From Escherichia coli (GTDB lineage: Bacteria; Pseudomonadota; Gammaproteobacteria; Enterobacterales; Enterobacteriaceae), in assembly GCF_036507355.1 (NCBI RefSeq), contig NZ_AP027877.1: DNA of 64,000 bases. One strand, written 5' to 3'. Positions 57,258 to 64,000 of this stretch are shown piece after piece. The translations under genes were made by a program, and so were the position numbers. The first letter of the stretch is position 1; each line of letters opens with the position of its first letter. The notes under the pieces were generated by a model, which searched no databases, was not told where the DNA came from, and saw only the letters and a list, made by a program, of their open reading frames with translations.

Positions 57258-58247
57258 TCAGCGTTTGCTGATCTGATCGAACGTACCGCCGTTAGCAAAA
57301 TGCTCTTTTTGCGCTTTCGTCCAGCCGCCGAACTCTTCATCAATGGTGAATAACTTCAGCTTTGGAAACGCATTTTCGTACTTTTTCGCCACCTCAGCGT
57401 CGCGCGGACGGTAGTAGTTTTTCGCGGCAATTTCCTGACCTTCTGGCGAGTAGAGATATTTCAGGTAGGCTTCCGCCACCTCTTTAGTACCTTTTTTCTC
57501 GACCACTTTATCGACCACCGACACGGTTGGCTCTGCGAGGATAGACTCACTCGGCGTGACAATTTCGAATTTATCTTTCCCCAGTTCATTCGCTGCCAGT
57601 AGAGCTTCGTTTTCCCAGGCGATCAGTACATCGCCAATTCCGCGCTCGACAAAAGTGTTAGTGGAGCCGCGCGCGCCAGAATCCAGAACTTCGACGTTTT
57701 TATACAGTGCCCGAACAAAATCCTGTGCTTTTGCCTGATCGTTGTTGTTGTGATGCAGCGCGTAGCCCCAGGCAGCCAGGTAATTCCAGCGCGCGCCACC
57801 AGAGCTTTTCGGATTAGGCGTGATCACCGAAACACCCGGTTTAATCAGATCGTTCCAGTCATGGATCTGCTTCGGATTTCCCTTACGTACCAGGAAAACA
57901 ATGGTGGAAGTGTACGGTGCGGAGTTATCCGGCAGACGTTTGATCCACTCTTTATCAATCCGCCCGCGTTCCGCAATCGCGTCCACGTCATAGGCCAGAG
58001 CCAGCGTGACAACATCAGCTTCAATACCGTTGATTACCGACGTTGCTTGTTTGCCTGAACCACCGTGTGACTGACGAATCACCACGTTATCGCCAGTTTG
58101 CTGTTTCCAGTGGGCGCTGAATGCCTTGTTGTACTGTTCGTACAATTCGCGCGTTGGATCATATGAAACGTTAAGAAGCTGAATATCCTTTGCCATAACG
58201 CTGGTTGCCGCCAGCAAAAATGTTAACCCTACGCCCCACTTGTTCAT
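57258..58247 (-). CDS. sbp: sulfate-binding periplasmic protein
   Basis: 329-aa ORF with signal peptide. Confidence 0.9.
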
Positions 58248-58404
58248 CGCCCGACTCTCTTATGTTGTGTTGTGATGAGCAAAGCGTGCCAGAAGGTTAA
58301 CCAAACATTAAAGAATAAAAAAAGATTGGCTATAACTTGCGGGTATATGTTGGGGGTTAAAAAGGCGGAAGAAATCCGCCTCATATTGCTGACAAAGTGC
58401 GCTT

Positions 58405-58520
58405 TATCGATGCCGGATGAGGCGCGAACGCCTTATCCGGCCTACAAAAGTTTGTAAATTCAATAAATTGCAGAATTCACGTAGGCCTGATAAGCGAAGC
58501 GCATCAGGCATTTTTGCTTC
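58405..58520. repeat. REP palindromic elements
   Basis: GATGCCGGATGAGGCGCGAACGCCTTATCCGGCCTAC and GTAGGCCTGATAAGCGAAGCGCATCAGGC. Confidence 0.8.
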
Positions 58521-58565
58521 TGTCATCGGTTTCAGGCTAAAGGAATCTGCCTTTTTCCGAAATCA

Positions 58566-59528
58566 TTAATACAGTTTTTTCGCGCAGTCCAGCCAGTCGC
58601 CTTTGAACGGACGCTTCATGTTTTCGATAGCGTCGATGATGTCGTGGTGAACCAGCTGTTCGTTCTGGATACCTACGCAACGACCGCCGTAACCTGCCAG
58701 CAGCAGATCGATAGCGTAAGCGCCCATACGGGAAGCCAGAATACGGTCGTAAGGCACCGGAGAACCACCGCGCTGGATGTGGCCCAGCACAGTTGCGCGG
58801 GTTTCACGACCGGTTTCTTTCTCGATGAAATGCGCCAGTTCGTCAACATCACACATATGTTCGGTAATCGCCACGATCGCGTGTTTTTTACCTTTCGCGA
58901 TACCCGCTTTGATTTCGTTTACCAGGTCTTCACGGCTGAATTCAACTTCCGGAACCACAACGAATTCACAGCCACCAGCAATGGCCGCAGCCAACGTCAG
59001 ATCGCCACAATAACGGCCCATCACTTCCACCACGGAAATACGCTGGTGAGAAGAAGAGGTGTCACGCAGACGGTCGATCGCTTCTACAACGGTGCTCAGC
59101 GCAGTGAAGAAACCGATAGTGTAGTCAGTGCCTTTGATGTCGTTGTCAATAGTGCCCGGCAGGCCGATGCACGGGAAGCCCATTTCGGTCAGACGCATTG
59201 CACCCATGTAGGAACCGTCACCGCCGATAACCACCAGCGCATCGATCCCACGTTTTTTCAGGTTTTCGATAGCCACGGCGCGGATGTTCTCGTCGCGGAA
59301 TTCCGGGAAACGCGCAGAACCGAGGAACGTACCGCCACGGTTGATCATGTCAGAAACGCTGTAACGGTCTAGCTGTACCATACGGTCTTCATACAGACCC
59401 AGATAGCCGTCATAAATGCCCATTACTTCCAGACCTTCTGTCAGCGCAGAACGAACAACCCCGCGAATTGCGGCGTTCATGCCTGGCGCATCACCGCCGC
59501 TTGTCAACACACCGATTTTCTTAATCAT
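58566..59528 (-). CDS. pfkA: 6-phosphofructokinase I
   Basis: 320 aa from [23 protein letters not shown]. Confidence 0.95.
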
Positions 59529-59708
59529 GACTACCTCTGAACTTTGGAATGCAAAATGAAATCTGTTGCCGGAAGTCTTCTTGCACATCGAAGTGATCCA
59601 ACGAATGTGCAAATAGTATAACAATCACTTCCTGCTGAATTGATTCAGGTCAGGCCAAATGGCGGTATTTTATACACAAAATGCGGGTCTGGCTCTCTTT
59701 TATACTGA

Positions 59709-60611
59709 TTATGAAAGCATAGACCGTTTACCCTCCCTGGGTACGACGGAACAGGGGTCCTGGTGGATAATCACATCCGATCCCGGAAAACGCCGTAAAA
59801 TAGCCTGCTCTACCTGATCCGCCACCATATGTGCCTGAACCAAAGGCAGAGAGTCTTCCATTTCCAAATGAATCTGAATAAAGCGGGTCGGCCCTGACTG
59901 CCGCGTGCGAAGATCGTGAGCGCCGCTAACACCCGGCCAGGAAGTCACGATATCAATAATTTCTTGCCGTTCCTCATCAGGCAATGCGCGATCCAGTAAT
60001 GACTGTACCGCCTCATATCCCATGCGTAACGCGCTATATAAAATATAGATGCCGATTCCCAATGCAAACAGAGCATCGGCGCGATGCCAGCCGTACCAGG
60101 ACAACCCCAGCGCCAGCAGAATTGCGCCGTTCATCATAACATCAGACTGGTAATGTAGCATATCAGCCCGCACCGCCTGGCTTTGCGTCCGGCGCACCAC
60201 CCAACGCTGAAACGAGACAAGTATAATCGTACAAATTAGCGCCACAATTGTCACGATAACCCCGACGCCTGGATCTGTCATCGGTGTTGGAGATATCAGA
60301 TGTTGAATACCCGTCAAAAACAGGAATAGTGCTGAACCGGAGATAAACATACTTTGCGCCAGCGCCGCGAGGGACTCAGCTTTACCGTGACCAAACGAGT
60401 GATTATCGTCGGCAGGTTGCAGGGAATATCGCACCACCAGTAAATTCGTCAACGACGCGCCGATATCCACCAGCGAATCCACCAGCGCGGCGAGAATACT
60501 CACCGACCCGGTATACCACCATGCAAAAATTTTAATCAGCAATAGCAGCGAAGCCATCGCCGTCGCAGCAATCGCCGCCCGACTGACCAGCCGTCCATAA
60601 GATTGATTCAT
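59709..60611 (-). CDS. fieF: cation diffusion facilitator (Zn/Fe efflux)
   Basis: 300 aa from MNQSYGRLV; CDF family. Confidence 0.9.
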
Positions 60612-60692
60612 AAATACTCCCGCTATCAACTGACGCTAGTATAACGGAAGCAAATCATCTGCAATGCATTAAGCAGCAGGCAAATTGAGGAT

Positions 60693-60818: not shown

Positions 60819-61331
60819 TTAATCGGACGCTTTTAAATTTTTATTTTTCCCAGCAGAAAAATTAGCTTTCCCGCTGTTTTGCAACTCAACAAGAGGAGAT
60901 AACCGTCGGTAAACAGCCAAAAGTATCTTTAACTGAACCAGTTCATCTGCCCCCGATAGTTGAACCAAGTTTTTACGTTGTTCTTCACTAAGTGCCATCA
61001 CAGATTCAAGTGATTTAACTGCGTCAGAAACAAGTTCAATCTCTTTAATTTGATTCTGTATACGCAGCTTCTCTGATTTCAACTTTGCCCATTCTCTTTG
61101 TCGATATGTACGCATCACCTGATCGTAAACTTTGTTGGCAGCCAGAATACTTCCACCAACAGCAGTAACTAACTCAGCAATCTGCCAAGAGATATCAATA
61201 AGAGCAGACAATTCAATAAAGCCAGGAGAGGCATACTGAATTTTTTTCACTACAGGACGTAAATCTGGTGGAGTCGCACTGTAAGCCCCTCTAAAAAAGT
61301 TCACCACACTGTGCCCACCCTCCCAAGGCAT
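60819..61331 (-). CDS. hypothetical protein (170 aa; predicted coiled-coil C-terminal half, no signal peptide)
   Basis: AT-rich ORF with AGAGGA SD 9 nt upstream of ATG; own terminator; IS lies about 35 bp upstream of start. Confidence 0.6.
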   Translation of the reverse strand: MPWEGGHSVVNFFRGAYSATPPDLRPVVKKIQYASPGFIELSALIDISWQIAELVTAVGGSILAANKVYDQVMRTYRQREWAKLKSEKLRIQNQIKEIELVSDAVKSLESVMALSEEQRKNLVQLSGADELVQLKILLAVYRRLSPLVELQNSGKANFSAGKNKNLKASD

Positions 61332-61365
61332 TGTTGAATATCCTCTTGATCCTCCTTTTAGGCGC

Positions 61366-62431
61366 TGAATTTACAATCCAAGTGCAACAAAAAAAGAAGT
61401 ACTCATCAACTAGAATATAATTTTGTTTCCACACAAAAACCACTTCCAAATGATGAGTACTTCCTACCGACATCTTACAATAAACGAGCGAGAAAAGATA
61501 ATGATTTTACTCGCACAGGGCAAAAAACAAGCAGAAATTGCCAAAGCACTGGGACGTAGCTCCAGCACCATTTCTCGCGAGCTGAAACGACACGCTCTAG
61601 AAAGCTACAGTGCAACGAACGCACAAAACAGCTATTTGAAGCATCGTCAAAATAGCAAAGCACAGCGCAAATTAGAGCAGCCTGAATATTTCAATTTGGT
61701 GCAAGAAAAGTTTCTGACAGAAAACTGGTCGCCCGAACAAATCAGCGCACGATTAAAATTGGAAAAATCTGAATTATCCATTAGTTATTCAACCATTTAT
61801 CGTGGTATTTATTCAGGGTTGTTTGATATAGGCGAACGCAAAGCCAGTCGCAAACTGCGCCACAAAGGCAAAACACGGCATACAAAAAATCATCATGAAA
61901 AACGTGGCAAAATTCAGATATCCAACCATTTGAACGACCGTCCCATTTCGGCGCAAAATCGCAGTCGCTTTGGACATTGGGAAGCCGATACCGTACTGGG
62001 TAAAGCGGGTGGAGCTTGTTTGCTGACGCTGACGGAACGCAAAAGTCGTTTTGAGTTGGTGAAGAAAATTCCTGCCAAAAAAGCCGAAGCAGTCCAAAAA
62101 GCCATGATTGAATTGCTGGATTCACATATATTGCGGTCAATTACGCCAGACCGTGGTAAAGAATTTGCCCAACATCGTTTGGTAACAGAAGCACTGGGTG
62201 TAGAATTTTACTTCCCCGAGCCGCATCAACCGTGGACACGGGGAACGAATGAAAATACAAATGGGTTACTTCGTGAATACTTTCCGAAGCACCAAGACAT
62301 CAATCAGTGGAGCGAAGTTGATATTCAACAGGTGATCAATAAACTGAATTTACGACCACGTAAATGTTTAGGTTGGAAAACACCTTATGAAGTTTACTTC
62401 AAAAAATCGTTGCACTTGGTTTGACAATTCA
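61366..62431 (+). mobile_element. IS30-family insertion sequence (about 1.07 kb; ISApl1-like by size)
   Basis: Imperfect terminal inverted repeats TGAATTTACAATCCAAGTGCAAC (left) and GTTGCACTTGGTTTGACAATTCA (right) flanking a single transposase ORF; boundaries +/-3 bp. Confidence 0.75.
61423..62424 (+). CDS. IS30-family DDE transposase
   Basis: N-terminal HTH (TINEREKIMILLAQGKKQAEIAKALGRSSSTISRELKRH), GHWEADTV and NENTNGLLR motifs; first codon of track ORF is TTG, true start probably internal. Confidence 0.85.
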   Translation: MFPHKNHFQMMSTSYRHLTINEREKIMILLAQGKKQAEIAKALGRSSSTISRELKRHALESYSATNAQNSYLKHRQNSKAQRKLEQPEYFNLVQEKFLTENWSPEQISARLKLEKSELSISYSTIYRGIYSGLFDIGERKASRKLRHKGKTRHTKNHHEKRGKIQISNHLNDRPISAQNRSRFGHWEADTVLGKAGGACLLTLTERKSRFELVKKIPAKKAEAVQKAMIELLDSHILRSITPDRGKEFAQHRLVTEALGVEFYFPEPHQPWTRGTNENTNGLLREYFPKHQDINQWSEVDIQQVINKLNLRPRKCLGWKTPYEVYFKKSLHLV

Positions 62432-62433
62432 AG

Positions 62434-62532
62434 GCCATAAAAAAAACCATATAGCTGCAAATACTCTTTCGTTAAGACCGCGAAATCAGCTAACTCCCAA
62501 CGATTATCAAGCTCAATTATAACTTTTTCCAT
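62434..62532 (-). other. short ORF (33 codons, MEKVIIELDNRWELADF...) with GGTGG SD that runs into the IS right end; possible truncated gene 5' end
   Basis: ATG at 62532 on minus strand, open until the IS boundary. Confidence 0.3.
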
Positions 62533-62636
62533 TTTCCACCAACCTGTCCAACTTTAAAGATTGACTTTTAAGTATATGATAAACATAGTTTATTAAACGT
62601 GATCCACTACTTTTAATGAAGAATATTCCCCAAAAC

Positions 62637-62663
62637 AGAAAGCCCCTCGACTGAGGGGCTTTC
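62637..62663. terminator. bidirectional hairpin terminator
   Basis: AAAGCCCCTC GACT GAGGGGCTTT with T-rich flanks on both strands. Confidence 0.6.
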
Positions 62664-62672
62664 TGTTTGTAA

Positions 62673-62771
62673 TTACATCCACATAATTTGCTGCCCTGAC
62701 GGCAACGGGTGCGGTCTTACGGCGTGGACTTCTCCCGGCTTGTCCAGGGTAATGACATTTTCTTTGTTCAT
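62673..62771 (-). CDS. small ORF (32 aa, MNKENVITLDKPGEVHAVRPHPLPSGQQIMWM)
   Basis: ATG start, ends just before the hairpin terminator; no recognisable homology. Confidence 0.25.
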   Translation of the reverse strand: MNKENVITLDKPGEVHAVRPHPLPSGQQIMWM

Positions 62772-62931
62772 GGTTTTCTCACTTCTGAATCAGGGTTAAC
62801 CGGCCAGCCAGGCTGACCGGATGAAAATCACAGGCCGATATTGCGGCGGTGTTGCTCCAGCCGGTCGACGCCGTTCACCTTCTCAATCATGTTGATGGTG
62901 TCAATTTCGACCAGCTCCTTACCGTCCATCG

Positions 62932-63138
62932 TCAGCCGGAAATAACCCATTTTTCACCGGCACGAGCCTTCGGTTTGCAAGGATCACGCAATTCAATAAT
63001 TGGTAATTTATTTGCCTTCACCATTTCACTGACGGCTGTCTTTGGCTTCCCTAATAAATCAGCAAATTTATCCACATGAACCGCATCAAGCGGATACTGA
63101 ATCACATAATTTTCAGCGTCCATATATGGTACCCTCAT
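62932..63138 (-). CDS. excisionase-like / small winged-helix DNA-binding protein (putative Xis)
   Basis: 68-aa ORF divergent from the HTH-integrase pair; FADLLGKPKTAVSEMVKANKLPIIEL segment resembles excisionase-type winged helix; family assignment tentative. Confidence 0.45.
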   Translation of the reverse strand: MRVPYMDAENYVIQYPLDAVHVDKFADLLGKPKTAVSEMVKANKLPIIELRDPCKPKARAGEKWVISG

Positions 63139-63198
63139 AGGATCCAGCCCTTTCTAAACCACTCAAAACCGTTTAGACGCTGGTTTATTCTCAAATCA

Positions 63199-63250
63199 AT
63201 GGAACCTATATAGGTTCCAGTTTTGAGGGAATTTAGTCCCTATATAGGCA
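63199..63250. promoter_or_regulatory. operator-like palindromes (CCTATATAGG core, two copies) in divergent promoter region
   Basis: GGAACCTATATAGGTTCC perfect 18-bp palindrome (63201-63218) and CCCTATATAGG (63238-63248), plus degenerate CCCTCATAGG at 63132-63141 overlapping the xis-like start codon. Confidence 0.6.
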
Positions 63251-63259
63251 CCATGTCAA

Positions 63260-63553
63260 ATGAAATTAAGCGAAAAGATTAAGGCCTTGCGTGAGGCTGA
63301 AGGGCTAAGCCAATCAAAATTCTGTGAAATCATAGAGTTACCGCTAAGCACACTTAAAAAATATGAAGGAGGAAACTTTGAACCCGGTGGCACAGCTTTG
63401 CTAAAAATCACTATGCATCCCACATTCCAAAAATATGCTCTATGGCTTATGACAGATAAAACCGCGCCGGACGCAGGACAAATCGCACCGGCTCTCGCGC
63501 ACATTGGGCCAGAGTCAACAGAGTCCAACCACTCCGAGAAAAGGATTGGATAA
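63260..63553 (+). CDS. XRE-family (Cro/CI-type) HTH transcriptional regulator
   Basis: 97 aa; LSEKIKALREAEGLSQSKFCEIIELPLSTLKKYE is a typical Cro/C1 HTH. Confidence 0.75.
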   Translation: MKLSEKIKALREAEGLSQSKFCEIIELPLSTLKKYEGGNFEPGGTALLKITMHPTFQKYALWLMTDKTAPDAGQIAPALAHIGPESTESNHSEKRIG

Positions 63554-63622
63554 CTCTATATAAAGATTACATTTTCACCATTTGCTACCAAGATGGTGAA
63601 TACAGCGCCGGAGGGCTTTCTT

Positions 63623-64000
63623 ATGGCAATTAAGAAGCTCGATGATGGTCGCTATGAAGTGGACATTAGACCTCGCGGTCGCGACGGAAAACGCATCCGC
63701 AGGAAATTCGAAAGAAAAGCTGAAGCACTAGCATTTGAGCGATACACAATCGCCAATGCCAGTCAGAAAGAATGGGGAGGCCAGCGAGCAGACCGCCGGA
63801 CTTTGAGTGAGTTGCTGGACATCTGGTGGAAATATCACGGGCAAAACCACGAGCATGGAACAAAAGAGTTTAATCATCTACTCAAAACCATCAGCGGCAT
63901 AGGTGATATACCAGTGAACAGGATGAGCAAAAGGGCTTTGATGGATTATCGTTCCATGCGACTACGTGATGGTATCAGTGCCGCAACGATAAACCGTGAC
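63623..64000 (+). CDS. tyrosine-type site-specific integrase, N-terminal part (truncated by window end)
   Basis: GGAGGG SD 8 nt upstream; 126 codons open to window end; MAIKKLDDGRYEVDIRPRGRDGKRIRRKFERKAEALAFE is a typical arm-type DNA-binding N-terminus; not in the ORF track because there is no stop in the window. Confidence 0.75.
   Translation, partial: MAIKKLDDGRYEVDIRPRGRDGKRIRRKFERKAEALAFERYTIANASQKEWGGQRADRRTLSELLDIWWKYHGQNHEHGTKEFNHLLKTISGIGDIPVNRMSKRALMDYRSMRLRDGISAATINRD

Follow-up and report, generated by a model that had tools for sequence, protein, structure and literature searches.

A P2-like immunity switch with palindromic candidate operators in a decayed prophage of Escherichia coli

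Genes and promoters at the cox'-C locus

The window analysed here is a stretch of 64,000 nucleotides (64 kb) that belongs to the E. coli chromosome, as seen from sbp, pfkA and fieF at 57258-60629. Its end carries the phage genes cox', C and int and a fragment of a tail gene, and the spacer between cox' and C holds two putative promoters, Pe and Pc, as well as repeated palindromic sequences (Table 1). The gene that a sequence-only reading of this DNA had called an XRE regulator encodes C, an immunity repressor. The protein matches the P2 C protein (PDB 2L49/2XCJ) over its full length with E = 3.6e-21 and PHROG 147 with E = 3.9e-39, Pfam returns HTH families only for its 97 residues, and the C-terminal motif LWLMT..GQIAPALAH is kept. 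The DNA of C is 100% identical in intact prophages. The int gene lies directly downstream of C in the same orientation, and in an intact, 100% identical prophage (locus L001) the site-specific integrase is followed by cpxP.

The divergent gene, previously described as xis-like, is cox'. Cox is an excisionase and also the repressor of Pc. The remaining part of the gene matches PHROG 272 at profile positions 1-60 of 90 with E = 1.2e-25. Both the homology with WPhi and the RefSeq annotation of identical prophages place the start of cox at 63123 and not at 63138.

Table 1. Coordinates of the genes, promoters and symmetric elements at the cox'-C locus
Feature	Position	Strand	Description
FII, tail tube protein, C-terminal fragment	62831-62943	-	Fused to cox'; Pfam Phage_tube positions 129-165 of 165, E = 4.4e-15
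cox' ("xis-like" gene)	62944-63123	-	Codons 1-60 of the 90-codon Cox; Pfam Phage_Cox E = 9.8e-14
Pc, lysogenic promoter	63127-63141	+	Extended -10 TGgTACCCT 63127-63135; putative +1 at ~63141; WPhi homology (L002 310-346)
Second dyad CCAGC..TCTAAAC..GTTTAGA..GCTGG	63145-63183		Predicted hairpin; starts at ~+5 of the putative Pc transcript
Extended dyad centred on O2	63187-63232		Arms CTCAAA 63190-63195 and TTTGAG 63222-63227; predicted to fold on both strands, z ~-4
O2 palindrome TGGAACCTATATAGGTTCCA	63200-63219		~+5 to +24 of the putative Pe transcript; aligned with the WPhi site that follows the Pe -10
Pe, early promoter	63259-63230	-	-35 TTGACA 63259-63254, 18-nt spacer, -10 TAAATT 63235-63230; putative +1 at ~63223; promoter scan
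O1 extended pseudo-palindrome GTCCCTATATAGGCAC	63236-63251
O1 core CCTATATAGG (P2 nomenclature)	63239-63248		Exact 10-mer within the 18-nt -35/-10 spacer of Pe; aligned with the WPhi site in the corresponding spacer
C, immunity repressor ("XRE" gene)	63260-63553	+	97 aa, HTH; Pfam HTH_3; PHROG 147
int, tyrosine integrase	63623-64000	+	N-terminal 125 codons before the window end; Pfam Int_N; PHROG integrase

The prophage is incomplete. Identity to every relative ends at 62943/62944, where codon 60 of cox is joined to the last ~37 codons of FII on the minus strand. Comparison with the intact Cox of L001 reveals that the cox' frame continues for three foreign codons (ISG) to a stop at 62932-62934. 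On these sequence comparisons, 62943/62944 is an internal deletion junction at which the replication and structural core of a P2-like prophage was lost. The cox'-FII' junction was sought in complete E. coli genomes, none of which covers it. Genomes with 100% identical DNA feature a complete P2-like prophage between fieF and cpxP with int adjoining cpxP, and WPhi and L-413C have been published as integrating at this fieF/cpxP site (PMC3448106).

An IS30 element of the ISApl1 family occupies ~61350-62460, with a transposase ORF at 61423-62424 on the plus strand. ISApl1 is the IS type that mobilises mcr-1. The element appears to interrupt a prophage gene of unassigned function, fragments of which lie on the minus strand at 60819-61331 and 62368-62532, and an intact version of 213 aa is found in strain E423. 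Between the IS element and the tail-gene fragments, AAAGCCCCTCGACTGAGGGGCTTTCTGTTT at 62640-62668 consists of a GC-rich hairpin followed by a T-run and resembles an intrinsic terminator. An Rfam scan of 62500-64000 gave no match in the switch and only a sub-threshold Phe_leader at 62575-62668.

Promoter prediction, which the sequence-only reading had proposed as a check, identified the near-consensus promoter Pe on the minus strand. Pe matches the sigma-70 consensus at 10 of 12 positions and has the position of the annotated promoter in the WPhi record (L002 428-464). Pc was placed from the WPhi annotation together with two published values, 60 nt between the Pc start and O2 and 82 nt of transcript overlap (PMC1904263). 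Both start sites are thus placed by homology. The two genes diverge, as had been stated, but on the placement used here the promoters would face each other and their transcripts would overlap by ~83 nt. In the diverged relatives inspected, Pc features TGnTAnnCT followed by GATCCAG, whatever their operator sequence. A call of an intrinsic terminator at 63219-63200 on the minus strand was rejected, as it falls at ~+5 of Pe and has no proper U-tract.

The start of C is preceded by an out-of-frame ATG at 63253, which opens a 9-codon ORF, MSNEIKRKD (63253-63282), overlapping the C start at 63260. P2 C begins at the equivalent first ATG (MSNT...). Judging from the reading frames, this lineage seems to have shifted frame and to start C at the second ATG, which abuts the -35 hexamer of Pe.

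Repeated palindromes and dyads in the spacer

The spacer between cox' and C measures 136 bp (63124-63259) and not the 120 bp first given. It features a 20-bp perfect palindrome with its core at 63205-63214, which is the longest perfect palindrome anywhere in the window; the 18-bp palindrome noted earlier at 63201-63218 is real and is contained in it. The exact 10-mer CCTATATAGG has two copies in the window, at 63205 and 63239, with a spacing of 34 bp. Both cores are perfect 10-bp palindromes, and they flank the -10 element of Pe, one on each side. The second core had been recognised in the sequence-only reading with its coordinates one base too wide (63238-63248). Elsewhere in the window, sequences with at most two mismatches to CCTATATAGG occur at chance level (9 observed against 11.6 expected). 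Dinucleotide-preserving shuffles of the 136-bp spacer produced a palindrome of at least 18 bp in 14 of 20000 cases and a direct repeat of at least 10 nt in 117 of 20000.

Short AT-rich palindromes are common in promoters, and the palindromes could be chance AT-rich features of this kind, or else a site for an XRE protein of the lambda or toxin-antitoxin type that has nothing to do with immunity. The shuffles argue against this, as do the confinement of the 10-mer to the spacer within the window, the exact preservation of the sites in hundreds of genomes and the homology with a mapped WPhi operator. Additionally, C has 97 aa and HTH families only and is not lambda CI-like, and its neighbours are cox and int, with no toxin. 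Homology and conservation can be regarded as having already refuted this explanation, and its probability is negligible.

A third, degenerate copy had been described as overlapping the start codon of the xis-like gene. The segment exists: CCCTCATAGG at 63133-63142 matches 7 of the 10 core positions with 3 mismatches, which is not significant alone. However, it overlaps a start codon only with the long cox ORF that begins at 63138, and since the homologous start of cox is 63123 in WPhi and in the RefSeq annotation, CCCTCATAGG is intergenic. If it were a third C operator at the cox/Pc end of the spacer, C would be able to autoregulate Pc directly. P2 C has been reported to regulate its own synthesis (PMC3448106), a resemblance of 7/10 would agree with such a role, and autoregulation by C is documented in P2 and stated to be unknown for WPhi (PMC3448106, PMC1904263). 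Against this, 3 mismatches in 10 are at chance level, TGnTAnnCT...GATCCAG is kept where the operators differ and does not co-vary with them, CCCTCATAGG coincides with the annotated Pc promoter of WPhi, and neither of the two virulent isolates discussed below is changed there. The segment stays constant whatever the operator sequence and therefore behaves as a promoter and not as an immunity-specific operator. A set of three operators is thus very unlikely, and the claimed third operator is better described as the conserved extended -10 and start of Pc, with a chance similarity to the core.

The two CCTATATAGG copies are embedded in a spacer that features larger symmetries. The outer inverted repeat reported earlier, CTCAAAAC (63162-63169) and GTTTTGAG (63220-63227), is exactly complementary. 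CTCAAA at 63190-63195 is a nearer partner and forms a compact dyad round the palindrome, an arrangement that is found in relatives. A survey of 80 further loci, reduced to 44 representatives that are less than 85% identical, revealed a dyad directly downstream of the Pe -10 in nearly all representatives, with its position kept and its sequences differing. The mean z of these dyads is -2.2 on the plus strand and -2.5 on the minus strand. The outer inverted repeat is part of a dyad whose position is conserved in heteroimmune relatives. In WPhi and P37 the arms of the dyad lie outside the repeated operator motif, and in many WPhi-like classes the arms AAAAGGT and ACCTTTT surround a class-specific centre. 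The hairpin of the second dyad is predicted in the window, in WPhi and P37 and in three further relatives (L042, L044 and L048), and its CCAG...CTGG arms recur. This second dyad may be bound by Cox, or it may form a stem-loop at the 5' end of the C-int transcript. The P2 cox-box consensus TTAAASNCM is not enriched in the window, and its matches in the spacer all carry 2 mismatches. In general the dyads may serve as extended sites for protein, or as stem-loops at the 5' ends of the overlapping transcripts. The plus-strand stem is the more stable in 28 cases against 15, with 66 against 39 G-U pairs, in sequences that are not independent.

These features raise the question of whether the palindrome, together with its outer arms, works chiefly at the level of nucleic acid. 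The 5' parts of the Pe and Pc transcripts would overlap there, and a hairpin formed in them could stabilise the 5' end, serve as a pause site or attenuator, or pair in antisense, with protein binding being secondary or confined to the site in the promoter spacer. The position of the dyad downstream of the Pe -10 in nearly all of the 44 relatives, including WPhi and P37, agrees with this, and so do the start of the stem a few nucleotides from the putative +1 of Pe, the second dyad at ~+5 of Pc and the terminator-like call on the minus strand. Additionally, replacement of the flanking phage DNA in WPhi raised a Pe reporter ~100-fold, an effect that was left unexplained (PMC1904263). However, the second CCTATATAGG copy lies outside any hairpin, and still its sequence is kept exactly and both virulent isolates carry a mutation in it; the homologous WPhi sites are proven protein-binding operators. 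The stems are nearly all Watson-Crick on both strands with a weak strand bias, which a DNA palindrome explains equally well, there is no Rfam match, and the tail past the stem is not a proper U-run. A role mainly as an RNA hairpin is unlikely on this balance, and the two CCTATATAGG-centred sites are treated below as candidate operators for C.

Relatives of the switch and natural mutants of the candidate operators

The gene content and order, cox'-C-int, match those of P2-like phages. Over 62944-63620 the window shows 99.1-99.7% identity to Yersinia phage L-413C, R18C, Salmonella phage FSL SP-004, 'Escherichia phage P2' (strain T22) and others, and 68% to WPhi. Among 5426 complete E. coli genomes, 419 carry the switch region once at an identity of at least 99%, and their annotation lists a 'Cox family DNA-binding protein' beside a 'helix-turn-helix domain-containing protein'. 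Relative to L-413C, R18C and related Peduovirus phages, C is identical apart from E93A; these are complete phages, whereas the window copy has lost everything from the 3' third of cox through to the end of FII. The region is thus very probably the immunity switch (Pe/Pc, C/Cox) of a P2-like (Peduovirus) phage of the L-413C immunity type in a decayed prophage. It is an already known system in a sequenced and annotated phage lineage. The P2-type C/Cox homology supports the earlier interpretation as a lysogeny or excision switch, with the exception of the third operator and autoregulation, and homology also favours the proposal that repeated sites allow the small HTH protein to repress the promoter from which the divergent, excisionase-like gene is read.

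Comparison with related operators, another check that had been suggested, was made with WPhi. The WPhi half-sites GTCACCAATA (L002 407-416 and 441-450) align column for column with the two CCTATATAGG copies, and both pairs are 34 bp apart, so the sites agree in length, spacing and position. Conservation of the palindromes in homologues was assessed with the C protein, which retrieved 45 IMG/VR loci, 38 of them near-identical. One of these 38 copies matches phage R18C in sequence, and the other 37 show zero changes in either core, in line with the retention of the CCTATATAGG sites in hundreds of genomes. In relatives whose C is 63-86% identical, both positions are changed, yet the sites match each other within each phage: one relative (L040) has GGAACCCATATAGG and its reverse complement at the two sites, another (L042) has ACACATATAGGTTC at both, and the sites of P37 are TTAATGAC/GTCATTAA.

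The changes that occur in two isolates bear directly on the function of the sites. L-413C derives from L-413 and is a mutant with clear plaques (PMC3448106). The paper on R18C, which makes no mention of operators or a repressor, presents that phage as virulent and P2-like (PMC6823313). The C protein of both is identical to the common prophage allele. When 677 bp of R18C are compared with the prophage consensus, only 2 changes are private to it: 63214 G>A, which alters the final base of the O2 core, and 63240 C>A, which alters base 2 of the O1 core. By our own arithmetic over 677 bp, two changes placed at random would both land within the 20 core bases with a probability of ~9e-4. Of the 4 private changes in L-413C, 63202 G>T lies in an arm of the O2 palindrome, 63231 A>G lies in the Pe -10, 63248 G>T alters the final base of the O1 core and the remaining one is in cox. 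The substitutions in both sites of L-413C and R18C are absent from the window copy. Seven other isolates have both sites intact. The Yersinia phage HQ103 (L053) features a 7-bp deletion in C, equivalent to 63416-63422, which truncates the protein, and its sequence indicates that it is a different route to lost lysogeny in the same immunity class.

In WPhi, repression is lost only when both half-sites are mutated (PMC1904268). In line with this, L-413C and R18C carry one substitution per site with a wild-type C, and this constitutes natural genetic evidence that both sites are operators. The pattern of substitutions provides good indirect evidence that O1 and O2 both act as operators, and by sequence L-413C and R18C resemble vir-type mutants, with both operators altered, of a phage that is otherwise temperate.

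Comparison with known switches and operator geometry

At the time of PMC1904268, mapped operators of P2-type C proteins were limited to P2, P2 Hy dis and WPhi. The C half-sites have a length of 8 bp and a spacing of 22 bp in P2, of 8 bp and 26 bp in P2 Hy dis, and of 10 bp and 34 bp in WPhi, and in P2 and WPhi they flank the Pe -10 (PMC1904268, PMC1904263, PMC2995052). WPhi, of immunity class III, is alike in its cox-C-int order, its chromosomal attachment site, a -35 TTGACA that abuts the C start codon, two 10-bp sites 34 bp apart round the -10, the position of Pc and a deduced transcript overlap of ~82-83 nt (PMC1904268, PMC1904263, PMC3448106). The two systems differ in that C is 57% identical, the site is CCTATATAGG here and GTCACCAATA in WPhi, and the WPhi sites form a clear direct repeat whereas each site here is palindromic, so that direct and inverted orientation are indistinguishable. 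Given the 57% identity of C and the differing site sequence, phages of the window type and WPhi would be expected to be heteroimmune. P2 shares the protein families, the overall logic and two sites that flank the Pe -10. However, the sites of P2 are direct repeats of 8 bp that are not palindromic and have a spacing of 22 bp, its transcripts overlap by ~35 nt (PMC1904268, PMC1904263), and its C and Cox are 43% and 45% identical to those of the window.

Other phage switches are less close. A lambda-like CI/Cro switch has a two-domain CI with C-terminal self-cleavage and three tandem operators of ~17 bp to which both CI and Cro bind. This reading of the locus was rejected, as C has 97 aa with an HTH only, there are two sites and not three, and the partner is Cox and not Cro. 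Like the P2-type switch, lambda CI/Cro and 186 CI/Apl are bistable and rely on opposed promoters and on two repressors that antagonise each other; the 186 promoters, too, face one another, and its Apl also serves as the excisionase. In contrast to lambda and 186, C is here a 97-aa single-domain protein, and there is no tripartite operator common to both repressors. A 186-type CI/Apl/CII arrangement was rejected on the 97-aa repressor, compared with a two-domain CI of ~190 aa, and on int directly following C; the locus shows no sign of a cII-type gene, with int directly after C. A toxin-antitoxin reading was rejected on protein size, domains and the neighbouring cox and int.

From the gene identities, the positions of the sites, the homology with WPhi and the natural mutants, the following mechanism is proposed. 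Transcription from Pe would run leftward into cox and, in the intact phage, on into the replication genes, and transcription from Pc would run rightward into C and int. A dimer of C, with its HTH, would bind the two CCTATATAGG-centred sites that bracket the Pe -10, and we infer one C dimer per palindromic site. With O1 and O2 both occupied, RNA polymerase would be excluded from Pe, lysogeny would be kept and phages of the same class would be barred. Pc would continue C-int transcription while Pe is blocked. Where the phage is intact, transcription from Pe would supply Cox, which would bind closer to Pc, stop the synthesis of C and promote excision.

The geometry of this binding is where the window class stands apart. 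C proteins of the P2 type have been described as binding non-palindromic direct repeats, which is a puzzle given the symmetric P2 C dimer (PMC2995052). That description does not apply to the window, where both cores are palindromic and O2 extends to 20 bp. The direct-repeat trait describes the three mapped classes and is not a criterion of homology, and membership of the family is not excluded by it. Because the sites are palindromic and those of the family have been described as direct repeats, the binding geometry may differ from that of P2. Among the 44 representatives, the two sites match better as inverted copies in 21, better as direct copies in 14 and equally in 9, with some of the matches barely exceeding the shuffled background. 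A single half-site is enough for binding by WPhi C (PMC1904263). The survey and this single half-site binding would fit one dimer per (pseudo)palindromic site. We put forward tentatively, as a possibility to which we give less than even weight, that each site is a complete palindromic operator of ~16-20 bp for one symmetric C dimer and that, separately, the two dyads, which begin at ~+1 to +5 of the putative Pe transcript and at ~+5 of the putative Pc transcript, act at the RNA level in the ~83-nt antisense overlap. If this is true, the non-palindromic direct-repeat rule would be a special case of paired pseudo-palindromic dimer sites, and the appearance of the P2 C crystal dimer as a palindrome binder would be explained.

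The end of the window is thus very probably a decayed P2-like prophage between fieF and cpxP and not an uncharacterised island regulator. The remnant features an intact repressor, operator and integrase and is without Cox or lytic genes. As cox is truncated and the lytic genes are deleted, its switch can only be one-sided, with C on, and the remnant probably confers superinfection immunity on its host against phages of the L-413C class and would be locked in place, unable to excise. The apparent vir-type status of L-413C, which is used in plague diagnostics, and of R18C concerns users who treat them as strictly lytic agents. Additionally, the window class supplies a naturally palindromic operator with which the reading of DNA by the symmetric C dimer may be studied.
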